Source of the DNA: Dictyostelium discoideum
Taxonomy: Eukaryota
Assembly (NCBI GenBank): GCA_000004695.1
Contig: CM000153.2
Location: 1,504,001 to 1,568,000 of the forward strand
Direction: 5' to 3'
DNA length: 64,000 bases
The notes below the pieces were generated by a model, which saw only the letters and a list, made by a program, of their open reading frames with translations, did no database searches and was not told the DNA's origin. The position numbers were made by a program, and so were the translations under genes. The first letter of the stretch is position 1, and every line of letters starts with the position of its first letter. Positions 5,861-61,798 of this stretch are shown piece by piece.

Positions 5861-16159
<10,299 letters not shown>

Positions 16160-16613
16160 TTTATTTTTTTATATTTTTTTATATTTTCTTTTTTTATTTA
16201 CTAATTTTTTTTTTTTTTTTAATATTTTTTTTTTTTAATAATAAAATAAATAATTAAAAAAAAATAATAATGGTCGAATATTAAAAAAATAAATAAATAA
16301 AAAAAAAAAAGTATAAAAAAAAAAAAAAAAAAAAAAAATTAAACAAAAAAATTTGAAAGATATAAAAAGAATAAATATATTTTTAAAAATTAAATAAAAA
16401 TTAAAAAATTAAAAAATAAAAAAAATAAAAATAAATAAAAAAAAATAAAAAATGATAGCCAACAACTTTAATTGGAGTTGTGTGCTAAAGAGTGGTGTGT
16501 GTTTAAAAAAAAAAAAAAAAAAAAAAATAATTATAAAATAAAATAATAAAATAAAATGAAATAATACAAAATGAGTGATGATTAAAACATATATACGAAA
16601 AATATAAAATAGA

Positions 16614-16647
<34 letters not shown>

Positions 16648-16953
16648 TAATTTATAAAATAAAATAAAATAAAAAAAAATTAATTAAAAAAGGAGAAAAT
16701 TAAAAAATTATAATTTAAAATTTTATTTTATAAAAGAATAAAAATAATAATATTAATAATAATAATAAAAAAGGAAAATAAGTGGAGCTAAAAAAGGGTT
16801 GTTTGTTGTTAAAATTACATCGTTAAACTCTGTATGAAATGAGAAACAAAAAAAAAAAAAAAACCTCAGTTTTTAAAGATTTATTTATTAAATTTGATTT
16901 TGACACACTCCTACATACATACCCCACCAAAAACACAATCAAACTAATTTCTT

Positions 16954-16961
<8 letters not shown>

Positions 16962-17021
<60 letters not shown>
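16962..17021. repeat. Homopolymer run of about 60 T. The minus strand reads it as A.
   Basis: Read directly. It lies in the intergenic region between the histidine-kinase start at 16159 and the saposin-gene start at 17553. Confidence 0.95.
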
Positions 17022-17022
<1 letters not shown>

Positions 17023-17552
17023 TTAACCCCGGAACCCCCACACTACTGATGATAATAATAACAAAAATTAACACCATGCAAACCATAAAAAATATAAAAA
17101 TAATAAAAAATTATTAATACAAAAAAAAAAAAAAATTAAAAAAAAGTTTTATAAGAAATAAATGAAAATCATCACAACACTCGTGTATTTGAGGTGTGAG
17201 ATATATTTTAAATAAAAAATAAAGAAATGAAAAAATCAATCAAAAAAAAAAAAAAAAAAAGTGATGGGAAAGTGTTGAGTTTGAAATGGATGATCGAGTA
17301 AAATAAAAAATAAAAATAAAAAAAATAAAAAAAAAAACTGAAAAAACTCTTTGGAAAAAATATCTTTTGGAAAAATGAAAATAATTTTCTTTTTTTTTTT
17401 ATTTTTTTTTTTTATTTTTTTTTTTTTCTCATTTTTTTTTTTTTTTAAATTTCATTTCCGCAATTTGAATCACTCTTTCACTTTTTTTTTTATTATTATT
17501 ATAATTATTATTGTTATAATTTGTATTATTATTAAAAAAAAAAAAAAAAAAA

Positions 17553-34386: not shown

Positions 34387-35137
34387 ATGTTAGAAAAATT
34401 TGATTATGAATTAATTAAATCAGCAGGAAATAATGATATAAAGAAATTAAGGGAAATGTTAGATTGTGGAGTTGATATAAATATGAAAGAAGCAGATAAA
34501 GGTACAACAGCAATACATATAGCATGTACAAGAGGACATAAACAAGCTATTGAGGTATTGGTATCACGTGGTGTTGATGTCAATGTTCAAGATAATAGAG
34601 GTGTTACACCATTACATTCATTAGTTAATAGTAGATATGACATTTTAGCATTATGGTTAATTCGTCATGGTGCTAAAATCAATATACCCGATAATAATAA
34701 TTTCTCAGCCTATGATTTAGCACATGGTTGGTTTCAAAAGGAGATGGTTTTAGCATCTGAGGGTAAAACATCCCAAAGTGAAGAGAAACTTGAAGAACAA
34801 CAAAAAGAAATGAAACAAAAACAAGAACAATATCAAAAACAAGTTTCAACATTGCGTGAAAAAATGTCAACAATTGATGTATCAACATCAACAACAACAA
34901 CAATGGCATCATCAGCAAATTTTGGAGCATCTTCAGGTTATGATACAATTAGAGGTGGTGTTTTATTAAATTCTTCAGAAGTTTTAAAAGTTTTCTTTAG
35001 AAATGAATCTTATAAATCAATTAAAGTTTCAAGTACTGATACTGCAAGAGAATTATGTAAAAGAATGGTTGAAAAATTCAATATGCCATCTTATGATAAA
35101 TGTTTTGATATTGTTGAAACAATAAAAGGAAAATGTA

Positions 35138-35209
<72 letters not shown>

Positions 35210-35423
35210 TTGTTGGTTTATTAATTTATTAATTATTTTTTTATTTTTAAATTTATTAGCTCGTTTTTTACAACCAACAGATTTATTATTACAATCAAAA
35301 TCAAAATGGCCAGTAATTGTTGGTACATCTGGAAATGAAACTCATTTACATTGTTATTTCTCCTGTGTAATTAGAAAAACTGCACCACCAGAATGTGTTG
35401 AACAATTCCAAAAAATTATTTAA
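34387..35423 (+). CDS. Ankyrin-repeat protein with a coiled-coil and a C-terminal ubiquitin-like / Ras-association-like domain. Two exons: 34387-35134 and 35260-35423.
   Basis: ANK repeats: GTTAIHIACTRGHKQAIEVLVSRGVDVNVQDNRGVTPLHSLV..., LIRHGAKINIPD. The intron 35135-35259 has a GTAATT donor, a (TAT)n body and a tttattag acceptor in phase 1. It joins ...FDIVETIKGK to S-RFLQPTDLLLQSKSKWPVIVGTSGNETHLHCYFSCVIRKTAPPECVEQFQKII*. The ORF track reads through the (TAT)n intron as poly-Y. Confidence 0.7.
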
Positions 35424-35524
35424 AATTAAAATTATTATTTTTGTACATTATTATAATAAAAAAAAAAAAAAAAAGATTGTTTATTCTTATAAGACAGTTT
35501 GATAATATAGATTCATTTTTTGTA

Positions 35525-35755
35525 GAATTATTGTTTAATAAAAATGTAAAATAAAACAAAAAAGATTTTTTTTTTTTGAAATAATTTTTATTTTATTTTT
35601 TTTTTTGTTTATTATGTATGGATTGAAAAATCTAGAATTTAGGAAAAACCTTATACTTTTCTAATTGACCAGCTATTATTTATTTGCAAAAAGATGACTA
35701 TCTATCTCATCTTGGAATTGTATAAATGATAAATTACCCTCTTTTTCTTTAGTTG
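35525..35755. repeat. Left arm of an inverted-repeat pair. Its partner is at 37510-37756.
   Basis: The reverse complement of 35525-35755 aligns base by base with 37510-37756. Example block: ccttatacttttctaattgaccagctattatttatttgc / gcaaataaataatagctggtcaattagaaaagtataagg. Weaker similarity continues inward to about 35990 and 37330. Confidence 0.7.
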
Positions 35756-36289
35756 TGATGAGATATTACCCAAAATTTGATAGGATAATTTCAGAAAATT
35801 TTCTAAATTTAATATGTTGCCCAACAGGAAAGTTTGGACCAACAAAATCAACCATTACACCAAATGTTAACAACAACAATTATTTTAATGGTTGAGGGAA
35901 AAATGAAAAATTATATTATAGTGATATTATTTATGAAAAAATTCATCAAAATAAATTTGTAAATATGGGTGATTGGTTTAATATGGATATTTCACAAACA
36001 AATGGAAAACTATTATCATTTTCCATAAAAATGATTTAGATAATAATATTTATTTTGAAAGCTATGAAATATAAACCAACTTTTTAATTCAATCAACATA
36101 AACTGTATGTGTTACATTATTAATACAAAAAAAAAACAAAAAAATAATCTTTTTTTAATGCAAATATGATTTTTTAAAAATAAAATAAAAATAAAACTAA
36201 TGTAAAAAAAAAAAATTTGGAACACACAAAATCTTGGTTATTATTATTATTATTATTATTTGTATATAATCAAAAAAAAAAAAATTGGC

Positions 36290-36420
36290 TCCAAATTTCT
36301 CTTGTGTAATTAGAAAAACTGATCCACCAGAATGTGTTGAACAATTCCAAAAAATTATTTAAAACCAAAACAAATATTTTTGTACATTTATTAAAATAAA
36401 AAAAAATAAAAAAAAAGATT
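36290..36420 (+). other. Duplicated fragment of the ankyrin gene's last exon and 3' flank, a truncated copy of 35345-35470.
   Basis: The sequence ctc(t/c)tgtgtaattagaaaaactg(a/c)(t/a)ccaccagaatgtgttgaacaattccaaaaaattatttaa is shared with the 3' end of exon 2 of the 34387-35423 gene. It is followed by a similar tttttgtacatt...aaaaaaagattgtt stretch. It has no upstream exon or acceptor context, so it is a fragment and not a gene. Confidence 0.7.
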
Positions 36421-36692
36421 GTTATATTTTTAAAATATTGTATATATTATTACAATTTATAAATTAATATTATTTTTCCTTTTTTTAATTTTTTTTTTAA
36501 TTTAATAAATATCTTTAACCTCAAAATCAAGCTTATTTTTTATTAATTCAAGATATAGTTGGAAATATTCTGGTTATTTTAAAAAATTTTTATTTCCAGA
36601 ATTTAAAAGATAAAGAAATTAATACAATTATAATTTGTAAATAATAGAGAAAAAAAAAAAATAATAAAAGCCTTTATTTATATTATTATCTA

Positions 36693-36926
36693 TTATTTTT
36701 TTAATGATGCTAATGAAGATTGCTTTGTAAGATCTCTCATTTGAACCTTAAAGTAATTATTGTAGCTTGTGATTTCAAGTGGCCATTTAGTAATAGTTTT
36801 ATTATCACAAACCCAAATTTCTTTTGCAACTTGAGAGATTAATCTAAAATCGTGAGATACTAATATCATGCCTCCGGGGAAAGAATTGATGGCCAAAGCT
36901 AAACTATCAATACATTCCATATCTCT
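36693..36926 (-). pseudogene. Second copy of the ABCF terminal exon, with intact ORF and splice acceptor. It is either a duplicated pseudo-exon or an alternative 3' exon.
   Basis: About 280 bp spanning 36660-36960 are near-identical to 38425-38700. It encodes (D)[46 protein letters not shown] then a diverged tail [29 protein letters not shown]. The real copy reads [29 protein letters not shown]. The cttgaag|AGATATGGAATG acceptor context is preserved. Confidence 0.55.
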
Positions 36927-37509
36927 TCAAGAAAATGATCAAAATAGTCAAAAACGATTAAATTTAATGTTTTAAAACGATCAAAAGGTCTAATAATGAT
37001 TTATCTGGTCTATTCAAACATGATGACATTACCGAGGTACAAGATTAAGATTTATTATTCAATAACTTAGGTATGTATTATTGTTTACCTTTTAGAAAAA
37101 AAAAAAAACTATTAATAATAATAATATTTATAAAAATTTTAAATCTAATCAAATTTTAGGTAGTATATCATCAGTAACAAATTTATCAATCAATATTACC
37201 GAAATCAATGGCAAATATTTAATAGATTTAGCTGGGAATCGTATTATTACATCTTTTTCAATTCTTTCTGGCGATCTTTATTAAGTGTTGTTTTGGTTCA
37301 CTCTGATTCAAAACCCCATTTATTTATAGTATCTGAATGAAAAAGTTTAGCAACTACATTGTTAAACTTTTTTCAATTACCACCAAAAATTGGGTCACTC
37401 AATTTATATTTTTATGGCTTTTCAACATTGTTCAATTATACACTACTATATTGATAATCATTTTTTTATGTACACCATCGATAGTGGTAGATAAAATGGA
37501 AATTTTATT

Positions 37510-37756
37510 TAGATTCATCACAACAAAAGACAAAGAGGATAATTTATCATTAGTACAATTCCAAGATGAGAAAGATAGTCATCTTTTTGCCAATAAATAA
37601 TAGCTGGTCAATTAGAAAAGTATAAGGATTTCTCTAAATTCTAGAGTTTTTAATCTATACAAAATAAACAAATAAAAAATAAAATACAAAAAGTTTTAAA
37701 AAAAAAAACCTATATCTTTTTTGTTTTATTTTACATTTTTATTAGAAAACAAAAAG
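37510..37756. repeat. Right arm of the inverted-repeat pair. Its partner is at 35525-35755.
   Basis: See the left-arm entry. Outer ends: ...ttacatttttattagaaaacaaaaag at 37731-37756 against gaattattgtttaataaaaatgtaa at 35525-35550. Confidence 0.7.
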
Positions 37757-38454
37757 TATTAACTATGTAACAAATATAATTTTAAAATTATTCCCAACTT
37801 TGGCCTCGAATTATTATAGCGATTTGTTGATGGGTTGAAATTACCCAAATTACCTAGTTTGTTAATAAAATTTGATTATTAAAAAGAAAAAAAAAAAATT
37901 GTGTATATTTTTTTTATTTTTTTTTGTTTATTTTTTATTTTTTTTTTAATTAAACAAACCAAATACTCTAATTCAATTTTAATGAACAAATTGAATATTA
38001 TTTCAAACTTTTTTTTTTAACATTAATCAAAACTAAGTAAATACTTATACCCCTACCTGGCTTTTTTTATTTTTACCTGCACCTGAGTTATTGAAAATTT
38101 TTTTCAACAACTGACATATCCTACCTGACGTACCTATACCCATTTAGAAACTCAAATCAGATCACCAAAAGTATCGCCATCTTTAAGATATTTAACATTT
38201 TTGAAATACAATTCCGAGGTCGAGATAAATGATTATTAACATCGGTTGGTTAAATAGTAAAAGAAAAGAGGCATGTAAATTGGGGAAGTGTTTAAGATTA
38301 TTTGGATATTTTCCAATTCACAATCGGATTCTATTAAATTTAATATAAAAAAAAAAAAATAATAATAATAATAATAATAATAATAAACTAATTAAATATT
38401 ATAACAATACAATTATATTTTTATAAAAAAAGCCTTTATTTATATTATTATCTA

Positions 38455-40446
38455 TTATTTTTTTAATGATGCTAATGCGCCTTGCTTTGTGAGATCTCTC
38501 ATTTGAGCCTTTAAGTGATTCTTATAGCTTGTGATATCACCTGCCCATTTAGTAATAGTTTTATTATCACAAACCCAAATTTCTTTTGCAACTTGAGAGA
38601 TTAATCTAAAATCGTGAGATACTAATATCATGCCTCCGGGGAAAGAATTGATGGCCAAAGCTAAACTATCAATACATTCCATATCTCTTCAAGAAAATGA
38701 TCAAAATGGTCAAATTTAACGACAAAATGGTCAAAAACGATTAAATTTAATGTTTTAAAATGATCAAAAGGTCAAATTTAATGATAAAATGGTCAAAAAA
38801 CGATTAAATTTAATGTTTTAAAATGATCAAAAAGGTCAAGTTTATAGTAATAAAATGGTTAAAATGACTATAGTTAGTATCGATTATATATTATTTATAA
38901 AAACAATTGTTTATAAATGTTTGTTGTTTTTTTTTTTTTTTTGGAATAATAAAAAAAGTACTTACAAATGATTTGTTGGTTCATCAAGTAATAAAAGATG
39001 TGGATTTTCGAGAGCCATAAGACAGAAAATTAAACGAGATTTAATACCATCAGACATACAACCAATAGCTTCAGTTTGAGCTTTACCAGTAACACCAAAT
39101 CTACCAATTTCACGACGCCATTCTTCGGTATCTTTATTCATATGAGCAAATTTAGAACGAACAAAATCCAATGGAGTAGCGGTGAGATCTAAAACTTCAT
39201 GAGCATGTTGATGATAACGAGCCATTTTAAGATGACTATGTTTTTTAATGAAACCTTGAGTTGGTGAGATTTGACCGACCATAAGCTTCAATAAAGTACT
39301 TTTACCAGCACCATTTGGACCAACAAGTGCAATTCTAGAGTCTAAATCGATAGCTAAATCTAAATTTCTATATAAAACATCTGCTTCTTTACCGCTGTAT
39401 GAAAAAGTAACATTATCAAAATGCATGATTGGTGGGGCCAATTCACCACATGGTGGGAATGAAAAATTGAAAATCTTATCTTCTTGTACTCTTTCGACGA
39501 GACCAGCTTCCTCCATTTTATCGATAATCTTTTGTTTTGATTTACCTTGACGGACCAAATTGGAATAGGTACCACAAGATGCGATAAAAGATTTAATGTG
39601 TGCAATTTCTTCTTGTTGTTTGTGGTATGCTTTCATTTGATTGACTTCCAATTCTGCTTTGGTCTTTACAAAGTTATCATAGTTACCACCATAGTATTTT
39701 AATTTTGATTGAGTCATATGGATGATATTGGTACAAACTGCATTGAGGAAATCTTGACTGTGTGAAATGATAATGAGTGAACGATCATAATTGGCTAAAT
39801 AATCCTCCAACCATACACATGCACCTAAATCCAAATGATTGGTTGGTTCATCCAATAAAAGAAGAGTTGGTTTAATGAAAAGTGCTTTGGCAAGTGATAC
39901 TCTCATTCTCCAACCACCAGAAAGATCTTTAGTTTTCTTTAACATTGTTTGACTTGTGAAACCTAAACCAATTAAAATTTCAGATGCTCTTGGTACAAAT
40001 GTAGTTGGATCTAAATTCTCTAAACGTTCATAAACATCAAATAATTCTTCACTTTCTGGACCTTGTTCTTCTAATAATCTCTCTTCCAATACTTCTAAAC
40101 GTTTAACTTCCTTTTCAGCATCATCAATTACTGATTGTAATGCAGTTCTTTCAGATGGATGAGCTTCTTCACTCAAATGGAAAATATCAATATGTTCTGG
40201 AATTGGTAATTCTCTAACTGCCAAACATTGGAAAAAGGTTGATTTACCACAACCATTTTGACCAATAAGACCATATCTTCTACCAAAATTGATTTCAACT
40301 GTTGTATCTGATAACAATTCTTTACCATGGAAAGTTAATGTAACTTGTTCAATTTTAACCTAAAAAAATAAGAGTAGTGAATAGGAGTTTATATTTTTAA
40401 AAAAAAAACAAAGGGTTAGTTTTTATTTTAAATTATTTATTTATTT

Positions 40447-61439: not shown

Positions 61440-61798
61440 TAAATAAAAGTTAAAAAAAAAAAAAAAAAATATTATAAAATTATTAAACTATAATATATAT
61501 ATAAACTAAAATTAAACATATAAAGATAAAATTAAATCTTTTTTTTTTTTTTTTTTATAAATTTTTTTTTTTTTCTATTTTATTTATTCTTTCTATAAAT
61601 TTGTTATTATCTTATCATTATTATTATTTTTTTTTTATTTTTTTTATTTTTTTATTTTTTTTTATTTGAATATTTATCTTTTTTTTTTATCTTTTTTTTT
61701 TTTTTTTTATGTTTAAATAAATAAAAAAAAAAAAAAAAAAAGTTATTTTTATCCATAGATATTTATAAATATTTTTTTTTTTCTTTTTTTTTTTTTTT

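Follow-up and report, generated by a model that had tools for sequence, protein, structure and literature searches.

The gap between two convergent genes of Dictyostelium discoideum, an ankyrin-repeat/Ras-association (ankyrin/RA) gene and an ABCF gene, contains a 2.2-kb stretch that a first-pass annotation described as a segment bounded by inverted repeats and holding second copies of both gene ends. This apparent segment is probably neither a unit nor a mobile element and appears instead to be a patchwork produced by serial local rearrangements. The rearranged gap is that of the laboratory (AX4-type) lineage, and there is good reason to believe that it formerly held two lineage-specific genes, here called W and Z, which are now decayed. 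The nested layout fits two tandem duplications that overlapped and were each cut back by deletion, with an inverted templated insertion coming later. Every repeat partner lies within 3.4 kb, and all the component sequences (X, Z, W, t, s, C and A; Table 1) have orthologues at the syntenic locus of relatives.

The locus and the comparison

The window, that is, the whole 64-kb stretch of DNA that was analysed, was searched for copies of the arms together with ten 21-kb related loci (about 210 kb, L001-L008 among them). L001 and L008 are wild discoideum-clade isolates, L002 is D. citrinum, L004 is D. firmibasis, and L003 and L009 are further relatives; L001, L003 and L009 are counted as discoideum-clade isolates. 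L007 is a spliced, RNA-derived contig, and L006 (GCA_054883475.1) is an independent chromosome-level D. discoideum assembly. The latter is 99.5% identical to the window over 21 kb, the differences being 5 mismatches and homopolymer-length gaps only, and every repeat is present in it. The arms and both gene-end copies recognised by the first-pass annotation are thus real.

No tRNA gene turned up when the whole window was scanned, and TRE retrotransposons, which are targeted to tRNA genes, would therefore have no target gene here. An Rfam scan of 33-41 kb gave just two sub-threshold chance matches, and the U3 spacer matched neither a tRNA nor an Rfam family.

Table 1. Features of the ankyrin/RA-ABCF gap and its flanking genes, in window coordinates.
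Feature	Position	Strand	Description
Ankyrin/RA gene	34387-35423	+	Exon 1 34387-35134, exon 2 35260-35423; XP_638737.1 / Q54Q60 (AX4)
C1	35356-35478	+	Real ankyrin gene end: last 22 codons, stop, 3' UTR to A-run
Scar and block t	35478-35536 (t = 35492-35536)	+	About 170 bp of spacer s missing, at ATTGT short repeat
X_L, left arm	35536-35761	-	Inverted copy of 37515-37744; source downstream of decayed gene Z
Second inverted block	35756-35815	-	Copy of Z last intron/exon boundary, 37118-37173
W'	35787-36216	+	Decayed remnant of resident gene W; 5' half and last exon missing
C2	36295-36420	+	Truncated second ankyrin end, beginning mid-exon; direct repeat with C1
Spacer s	36420-36575	+	Ancestral sequence 3' of ankyrin gene
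A1	36576-37000	-	Second copy: ABCF 3' flank, terminal exon, acceptor, part of last intron
Z'	36993-37400	+	Pseudogene remnant of orphan gene Z: penultimate-exon end, intron, last exon; stop codons
X_R, right arm	37515-37744	+	Native sequence downstream of Z; single-copy orthologue in L001, L003, L009
U3 spacer	37752-38327	.	G+C-richer block about 38030-38330; parts conserved in L009 (13345-13609) and L001
A2	38328-38785	-	Original ABCF 3' flank, terminal exon (38455-38686), last-intron start
ABCF gene, 593 aa	38455-40698	-	Exons 40698-40543, 40359-38966, 38686-38455; agrees with L006 called gene

Copies of the two gene ends

The product of the ankyrin/RA gene carries Pfam Ank and RA domains and shows identity with the AX4 protein. 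Both of its exons are matched at 100% by the RNA-derived contig, in which the intron is removed exactly as modelled; the contig stops matching at 35443, short of the A-run (about 35460-35475), and continues into adapter sequence. As the first-pass annotation had proposed, a copy of this gene end lies inside the segment: 36295-36413 is 87% identical to 35356-35474, a match that spans the last 22 codons, the stop codon and the 3' UTR as far as the A-run. Over about 110 nt, C2 has about 8 substitutions found in no other copy (about 7%), and one single-base indel, a weak character, joins C1 with the copy in L001 and L008.

The proposed copy of the complete ABCF terminal exon is likewise borne out. 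The core of A1 (36661-36952) matches 38423-38714 at 95%, within an extended match of 36576-37000 to 38328-38785, and the whole exon is retained with an intact 75-codon ORF (36693-36920), for which there is no called gene on record. Both copies resemble retrocopies in being extra partial copies of gene 3' ends. Unlike retrocopies, however, A1 still has the splice acceptor together with some 75-100 nt of last-intron sequence, and both A1 and C2 keep flanking non-transcribed DNA, from which it follows that they were copied as DNA. A processed pseudogene or retrocopy was accordingly rejected for A1, which also has the 3' flank.

The two copies lie about 300 bp apart, and this distance had been read as the ancestral tail-to-tail spacing of the convergent genes. 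That reading is not supported: the ABCF piece near the ankyrin end is a duplicate wherever it is present (L001, L008 and the window), and in outgroups the genes are separated by 1.2-4.3 kb, mostly with other genes between them.

A1 is a mosaic, in which 157 nt (36783-36939) are 100% identical to the real exon and the block 36716-36782 is 21% diverged. Judged from this pattern of identity, there is patchy gene conversion between the pseudo-exon and the real ABCF exon. Moreover, the working exon in the AX4-type lineage bears a variant otherwise present only in the pseudo-copies, and conversion seems to have altered the working ABCF protein at two residues. Pseudogene-templated gene conversion is known in humans, where CYP21A1P converts CYP21A2. 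The resemblance lies in a nearby non-functional copy and a working exon that share an identical tract amid diverged flanks; unlike the human case, the direction of transfer would here be read from a single informative motif (GCCAAAG versus GCAGCAC), and there is no known phenotype.

Resident genes and spacers

Comparison with relatives identifies most of the remaining sequence as resident in the gap. The stretch 35476-35536 is 92% identical to L009 11216-11276, and in L009 block t comes after spacer s. Within W', 35787-36119 matches L009 12054-12401 at 84% and 36163-36216 matches the 3' flank of W (L009 13067-13123); the reading frame has one in-frame stop. W' and t keep the order and orientation of the orthologous L009 sequence. 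An ORF-like stretch at 35755-36040 gave no Pfam match and no protein homologue, and its origin was found by DNA comparison with L009. Spacer s is collinear with L001, L008 and L009, directly following the single ankyrin end in each. Further, 36992-37743 is 78% identical to L003 13791-14554, and Z' is orthologous to an annotated L003 gene. Z had no homologue beyond L003, and no Pfam family was found for W, Z or the neighbouring L003 ORFs. The 1296-aa gene that occupies this gap in D. citrinum was considered as the ancestor of W and Z and rejected, as tblastn gave no match.

The ankyrin-ABCF gap measures 1165 bp in D. firmibasis (L004), 2288 bp in L001, 3031 bp in the window, 3612 bp in L003, 3777 bp in L009, 4309 bp in D. 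citrinum (L002) and 6387 bp in L008, and both its gene content and the number and orientation of its ABCF-exon copies vary among lineages. The first-pass annotation had recommended a comparison with related strains. In the two wild isolates L001 and L008, only 35536-36295 is missing; they have no left arm, no W and a single ankyrin end. A1, Z' and X_R are all retained in L001, as is part of A1 in L008; the flanking ankyrin and ABCF genes are intact in both.

The inverted arms

The arms align as reverse complements (35536-35761 against 37744-37515) at 89% identity over 232 aligned positions. The local score of 177 compares with 24.5 +/- 3.8 (maximum 36) for dinucleotide shuffles and with a best score of 51 among all other tiles of the window, so the inverted symmetry claimed for the locus goes far beyond chance, even if "near-perfect" overstates its identity. 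The weaker similarity said to extend about 200 bp further inward is not a diffuse match; it resolves into one displaced inverted block, where 35756-35815 matches 37173-37118 at 76% over 63 nt and orthologous sites in L003 and L001 at 93.5% over 31 nt. Its displacement reflects about 340 bp that are present in the right copy and missing from the left.

The two arms differ from each other by 9%, from the L001 copy by 17-19% and from the L003 copy by 13-15%. All 5 of the 5 informative sites group X_L with X_R against L001 with L003, and none favours another split. X_R is native local DNA, and X_L is a younger inverted copy of it. An 87-aa ORF over the right arm corresponds to no called gene on record. 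The palindromes described for D. discoideum in the literature, which are hairpins of 19-80 bp, were considered and found not relevant to the arms.

Junctions and the proposed course of events

Breakpoints disregard gene structure, falling in mid-exon (ankyrin, Z and W) and in mid-intron (ABCF). The junctions read to the base are those other than W flank/C2 and s/A1 flank, both of which lie in A+T-rich sequence. A 6-nt microhomology, TGATGA, is found where X_L joins the Z acceptor, with about 340 bp missing between; CAAAT is found where the A1 intron joins the middle of a Z exon, a junction identical in L001; and ATTGT is found at the loss of s after C1. At t/X_L a TGTTT microhomology is possible, though ambiguous, with 3 nt unaccounted for, and one junction has 1 nt only. 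The continuity of C and s, the s/A1 junction and the A1-intron/Z-exon junction are common to the window and L001.

The local inverted-duplication rearrangement that the first-pass annotation offered as one of its two explanations points in the right direction and is too simple, in that there is no single unit and several events of differing age are involved: the unconverted block of A1 has diverged by 21% and the arms by 9%, and changes unique to C2 amount to about 7%. The earliest event is most likely an old tandem duplication of the interval comprising the 3' part of Z, X, U3 and the ABCF 3' flank, last exon and intron start, which created pseudo-exon A1 and joined the ABCF intron to the middle of the Z exon at CAAAT; the junction common to L001 attests this step. 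A tandem duplication of C, s, t and W could then have produced C2, and a large deletion in the second unit would have joined s to the A1 flank. In the L001/L008 lineage, recombination between the C-s repeats presumably collapsed this duplication and removed W. The order of these two steps follows from parsimony, since neither W nor t could come back once lost and the window and L001 have the s/A1 junction in common; intermediate haplotypes did not appear among the loci compared. In the AX4-type lineage, spacer s is lost after C1 at the ATTGT repeat, and an inverted copy of about 280 bp, in which sequence from downstream of Z is joined to the Z acceptor at TGATGA, replaces the 5' half of W and forms the left arm; both changes are visible in the sequence, and their placement in time is probable. 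Gene conversion, finally, holds patches of A1 and the real exon identical. The unique change in C2 is slightly less than expected if C2 is older than the L001 split, and C2 may itself have been homogenised by gene conversion.

The junction sequences suggest microhomology-mediated end joining or replication template switching of the MMBIR/FoSTeS type, together with unequal recombination. No function is needed to explain the structure. Two simpler maps were tried and rejected: duplicating the entire interval from C to A once in tandem would give C-A-C-A where the locus has C-C-A-A, and a flip of the interior between the arms makes the map no simpler, both AX4-type assemblies sharing the same orientation.

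Complex local rearrangements of the FoSTeS/MMBIR kind, including duplication-inverted-duplication structures, are familiar from the human structural-variation literature. The present locus resembles them in its junction microhomologies of 5-6 nt, in an inverted templated piece drawn from less than 2 kb away, and in duplications that begin and end inside exons and introns with deletions at the same sites. Unlike them, it is built on a scale of hundreds of bases rather than kilobases to megabases, and its pattern sums several events of different age, the mechanism being read from the junctions alone.

Alternative explanations

Given that several microhomology junctions and an inverted piece templated from less than 2 kb away are typical of one-step FoSTeS/MMBIR, a single complex event, whether one round of template switching or chromothripsis-like repair, could be thought to have made the whole nested pattern. 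This is unlikely: the repeats have diverged by 21%, about 7% and 9%, the A1/Z and s/A1 junctions are common to L001 and the left arm is not, and other lineages carry independent variants of the region.

It is quite unlikely that the arms and the enclosed antisense-capable copies of both gene ends, in the laboratory lineage only, direct read-through small RNAs against the ankyrin/RA and ABCF mRNAs and that, separately, the pseudo-exon is a standing source of conversion by which the C-terminal exon of ABCF, an essential translation factor, is rewritten. Taken by itself, a functional hairpin-RNA or antisense locus, in which ankyrin read-through would reach the arms and the ABCF antisense and yield dsRNA regulating the flanking genes, is very improbable. 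On a single RNA, 211 of the 226 arm positions could pair; the cofold energy is -253 kcal/mol, and shuffling the partner brings it to -68 +/- 4. The interior offers the 157 nt identical to the real ABCF exon, and one report describes inverted repeats of DIRS-1 driving RNAi in D. discoideum (PMC4482531). Yet the RNA-derived ankyrin contig ends upstream of the A-run, the pseudo-exon ORF and the arm ORF are absent from called-gene records, and the arms drift freely, with 6 of 27 codons of their small ORF changed. Moreover, two wild discoideum-clade isolates with intact flanking genes do without the left arm.

The other explanation of the first-pass annotation was a foldback or MITE-like element that duplicated host sequence (transduplication). 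Extended to thug-like elements, it would have a DNA transposon with terminal inverted repeats of 230 bp capture host fragments and insert between the two genes; this can hardly be sustained and is highly improbable. In its favour, two inverted arms of about 230 bp enclose host gene fragments at a distance of 1.75 kb, although terminal inverted repeats do not by themselves define a transposon, and D. discoideum has the non-autonomous DNA transposon families Tdd, DDT and Thug (PMC5633606); such elements, like foldbacks, MITEs and Pack-MULEs, also place inverted arms around non-coding DNA and pieces of host genes. Here, however, the right arm is native, being a single-copy orthologue in three relatives and contiguous there with gene Z, and the left arm is younger. 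The outer flanks of the arms (...GAATTATTG before the left arm, AGAAAACAAAAAG... after the right arm) share no direct repeat that could be a target-site duplication, and no further copy of the arms was found in the window or in the related loci. The segment has no transposase-like ORF, no ORF of at least 90 aa and no Pfam match. The supposedly captured pieces predate the arm duplication, and the interior consists of resident genes in ancestral order. Relatives without the left arm retain the ABCF copy (part of A1 in L008), and L001 also the right arm; there is therefore no empty site, and no clean presence or absence, for a 2.2-kb unit.

Lastly, although the region is very A+T-rich and repeat-bearing, collapse or chimerism during assembly is a negligible prospect, since the independent assembly L006 has the same structure, arrangement and spacing, and other isolates carry parts of the structure with identical junctions.

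Implications

Overall, the serial rearrangement of this gap adds one more case to a known class of events, essentially ordinary and unsurprising to specialists in genome rearrangement. One candidate new transposon can be struck off the list. In its place stands a case, documented by base-level junctions and by outgroups, that shows how the pattern of an inverted repeat with gene fragments can arise without a mobile element, set in a compact, haploid and A+T-rich genome. The ankyrin-ABCF gap emerges as a small hotspot of rearrangement and gene turnover, with seven structures in seven lineages and unrelated orphan genes in different clades. Moreover, the apparent exchange between A1 and the ABCF exon offers a specific locus at which microhomology-mediated repair and gene conversion can be studied in Dictyostelium.

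The repeats and their flanking genes

Self-comparison of the extremely A+T-rich window revealed three repeats far above the compositional background, listed in the table together with the two convergent genes on either side, whose stop codons lie 3031 bp apart. The first-pass annotation had described a segment at 35525-37756 with inverted arms and second copies of both gene ends, and this is borne out; the arms, however, are not near-perfect at 89% identity, and in place of the weaker, diffuse similarity said to extend further inward there is a single displaced inverted block. The arm alignment scores 177; dinucleotide shuffles score 24.5 +/- 3.8, and no other tile of the window exceeds 51. 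The ABCF repeat runs from the 3' flank through the entire terminal exon and its acceptor to about 75-100 nt into the last intron. Since an independent, chromosome-level D. discoideum assembly (GCA_054883475.1), 99.5% identical over 21 kb and differing by 5 mismatches and homopolymer lengths, carries the same structure, the assembly artefact that had been considered can be set aside.

Repeats and flanking genes in the window (positions in nt)
Feature	Coordinates	Strand or orientation	Identity	Basis or remark
Ankyrin-repeat / Ras-association protein gene	34387-35423	+		Pfam
ABCF ATPase gene	40698-38455	-		three exons, 593 aa
Inverted repeat, left/right arm (X_L/X_R)	35536-35761 vs 37744-37515	inverted	89%	
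Direct repeat, real/copied ankyrin gene end (C1/C2)	35356-35474 vs 36295-36413	direct	87%	
Direct repeat, copied/real ABCF end (A1/A2)	36576-37000 vs 38328-38785	direct	95% (core)	
Displaced inverted block	35756-35815 vs 37173-37118	inverted		

The ankyrin/Ras-association protein clusters with D. discoideum AX4 XP_638737.1 / Q54Q60, and a spliced RNA-derived contig is 100% identical to both exons, which bears out the intron at 35135-35259. Much of this intron (35138-35207) consists of a (TAT)n microsatellite with about 23 units; arrays of this kind occur elsewhere in the window and dominate low-stringency self-matches. The last ABCF intron holds, at 38700-38850, about 2.3 tandem copies of a unit of about 63 bp, CAAAATGGTCAAAAACGATTAAATTTAATGTTTTAAAATGATCAAAAGGTCAAAT, present as a single unit in A1. 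Within U3, the spacer (37752-38327) before A2, the block at 38030-38330 is more G+C-rich (about 29-32%) and partly conserved in L009 (13345-13609) and L001; no notable ORF, tRNA or Rfam match was found in it.

The interval in related isolates

Syntenic loci fetched via the ankyrin protein came from D. discoideum-clade isolates (L001, L008), 'D. cf. discoideum' isolates (L003, L009), D. citrinum-clade isolates (L002, L010), D. firmibasis (L004) and D. purpureum (L005), the last of these lacking synteny with ABCF. Except for D. firmibasis and D. purpureum, the assemblies are, by BioProject, apparently those of Holland et al., PNAS 2025 (PMC12745789). The ankyrin-ABCF gap measures 1165 bp in L004, 2288 in L001, 3031 in the window, 3612 in L003, 3777 in L009, 4309 in L002 and 6387 in L008. 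No gene is called in the D. firmibasis gap, and several orphan genes are found in those of L003 and L009. The citrinum-clade gap holds an intact gene of 1264-1296 aa with long N/Q runs (L002 11301-15191; L010 11363-15157), with no Pfam domain and unrelated to the genes W and Z described below or to anything in the window. As judged from these loci, the lineage-specific genes that occupy the interval differ between clades.

Further rearrangements are seen in individual isolates. The wild isolate L001 has three ABCF terminal-exon copies (11266-11589, 12382-12734, 13168-13632) and two A-intron/Z-exon junctions, suggesting that the unit Z 3' part-X-U3-A was duplicated in tandem once more. An extra ABCF exon copy in L009 (13635-13792, 14592-14442) is split at the equivalent of window 38610, its halves oppositely oriented on each side of Z'-X (the Z remnant and arm sequence); the arrangement suggests an independent inversion that broke within the copy. 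In L008, a 5.6-kb stretch (11465-17051) stands in place of Z', X and most of U3; it has no ORF of at least 90 aa, and its sole resemblance to the window is weak, over 120 nt at 61490-61608.

Origin of the arms

Window 36992-37743 is collinear (78%) with L003 13791-14554, which comprises the penultimate-exon end, intron, last exon and 3' flank of an annotated gene, Z, of 206 aa, for which no homologue was found elsewhere. The stretch in the window carries stop codons and is therefore a pseudogene remnant, Z'. The right arm lies 150-370 bp downstream of the Z stop and is single-copy, at the same position, in L001, L003 and L009. A 27-codon ORF ending in SHLFANK and two stops is open in both arms (37520-37600; 35680-35760 on the - strand) and in L003 (14330-14410), where the acceptor-like TTATTTAG precedes it. 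As 6 of its 27 residues differ between the arms, it is probably without coding constraint, although it might still be a last exon of Z that annotation missed.

Inward of the left arm, window 35787-36119 matches L009 12054-12401 (84%, same orientation) and 36163-36216 matches L009 13067-13123; these pieces (W') are parts and 3' flank of a second resident gene, W. Block t (35492-35536) matches L009 11216-11276, where it follows the ankyrin 3' spacer, s. Between the arm cores 9% of sites differ; the divergence of either arm is 17-19% to the L001 copy and 13-15% to the L003 copy. The two arms are united by five informative sites, with none in favour of any other grouping. The left arm is a young inverted copy of local sequence. 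It consists of the reverse complements of 37515-37744 and of 37118-37173 (the Z acceptor region), joined within a TGATGA found in both parents. Its junction with t has a possible TGTTT overlap, with 3 nt unaccounted for; its other end adjoins the middle of a W exon with a 1-nt overlap, and it stands in place of about 780 bp of the W 5' region (L009 coordinates). The pair of arms has no flanking direct repeat.

Were the arms ever on one transcript, a computed duplex of about 211 bp would be possible; a functional hairpin-RNA or antisense locus is nonetheless very improbable, given the changes in the small shared ORF, arms that are free to diverge, and an ankyrin RNA-derived contig that reaches just 35443, with adapter sequence from there. 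No indication of function was found.

The foldback or MITE-like element, one of two readings first proposed, is very improbable, and on the loci compared the mobile-element reading was rejected because one arm is native sequence, the segment has no target-site duplication, and there is no clean empty site among the relatives compared. The segment has no ORF of at least 90 aa, Pfam match or Rfam family, no tRNA gene lies nearby, and a search of the whole 64 kb and of loci L001-L008 found no further arm copies. The DNA transposon families of D. discoideum are Tdd, DDT and Thug (PMC5633606).

Direct repeats and the order of events

The direct repeats appear to be older than the left arm and of separate origins. 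C2-s (36295-36575) is collinear with the real ankyrin end and spacer in L001, L008 and L009. The A1-intron/Z-exon junction, GGTCTAATAATGATTTAT, is identical in the window and L001, sits in a CAAAT common to the ABCF intron and the Z exon, and is as expected from tandem duplication of Z 3' part-X-U3-A. A1 has a block (36716-36782) 21% diverged from the real exon, with tracts of perfect identity on both sides, and, compared between genomes, its positional orthologues do not group as nearest relatives; both findings mark A1 as an old duplicate in which gene conversion homogenises patches.

In L001 and L008 the ankyrin end is single, with s and A1 immediately after it; t, the left arm, W' and C2 (window 35536-36295) are missing. 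The s/A1 junction is common to the window and L001; W and t are shared, at the same position, with the outgroup L009 and were therefore not regained. In the simplest reading, the common ancestor of the window and L001 would already have had two C-s copies through tandem duplication of C-s-t-W; a large deletion would then have joined s to the A1 flank. The duplication would have collapsed in L001 and L008 by recombination between the copies, and the AX4-type lineage would later have lost the first s copy at an ATTGT repeat. This order is inferred, not read from intermediate haplotypes, none of which was seen among the loci compared; for two junctions, W flank/C2 and s/A1 flank, both in A+T-rich sequence, no exact breakpoint was obtained. 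The spacing of about 300 bp between the two copies, earlier thought to be ancestral, is not.

Conversion appears to have reached the working gene as well. The real exon (38545-38701) and the pseudo-exon (36783-36939) share 157 nt of perfect identity beside the diverged block. At about 38650-38660 the real exon of the window reads GCCAAAG (LALA), a motif otherwise found only in pseudo-copies, namely A1 of the window and the two L001 pseudo-copies; in L001 and L008 the real exon reads GCAGCAC (LGAA; ...DSLGAAINSF...), and other species have further variants. This motif distribution and the identity tract suggest that the pseudo-exon converted the working ABCF exon in the AX4-type lineage, changing two residues.

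Mechanism and significance

Judging by the junctions, the duplications, deletions and inverted insertion probably arose by microhomology-mediated end joining or replication template switching, and the repeats so formed probably underwent homologous recombination or gene conversion with one another. The initial suggestion of a local rearrangement thus holds in spirit, although not as a single inverted duplication: the structure is a patchwork built up in several steps within a small hotspot of structural change. It is a new example of a type of event that is well known.
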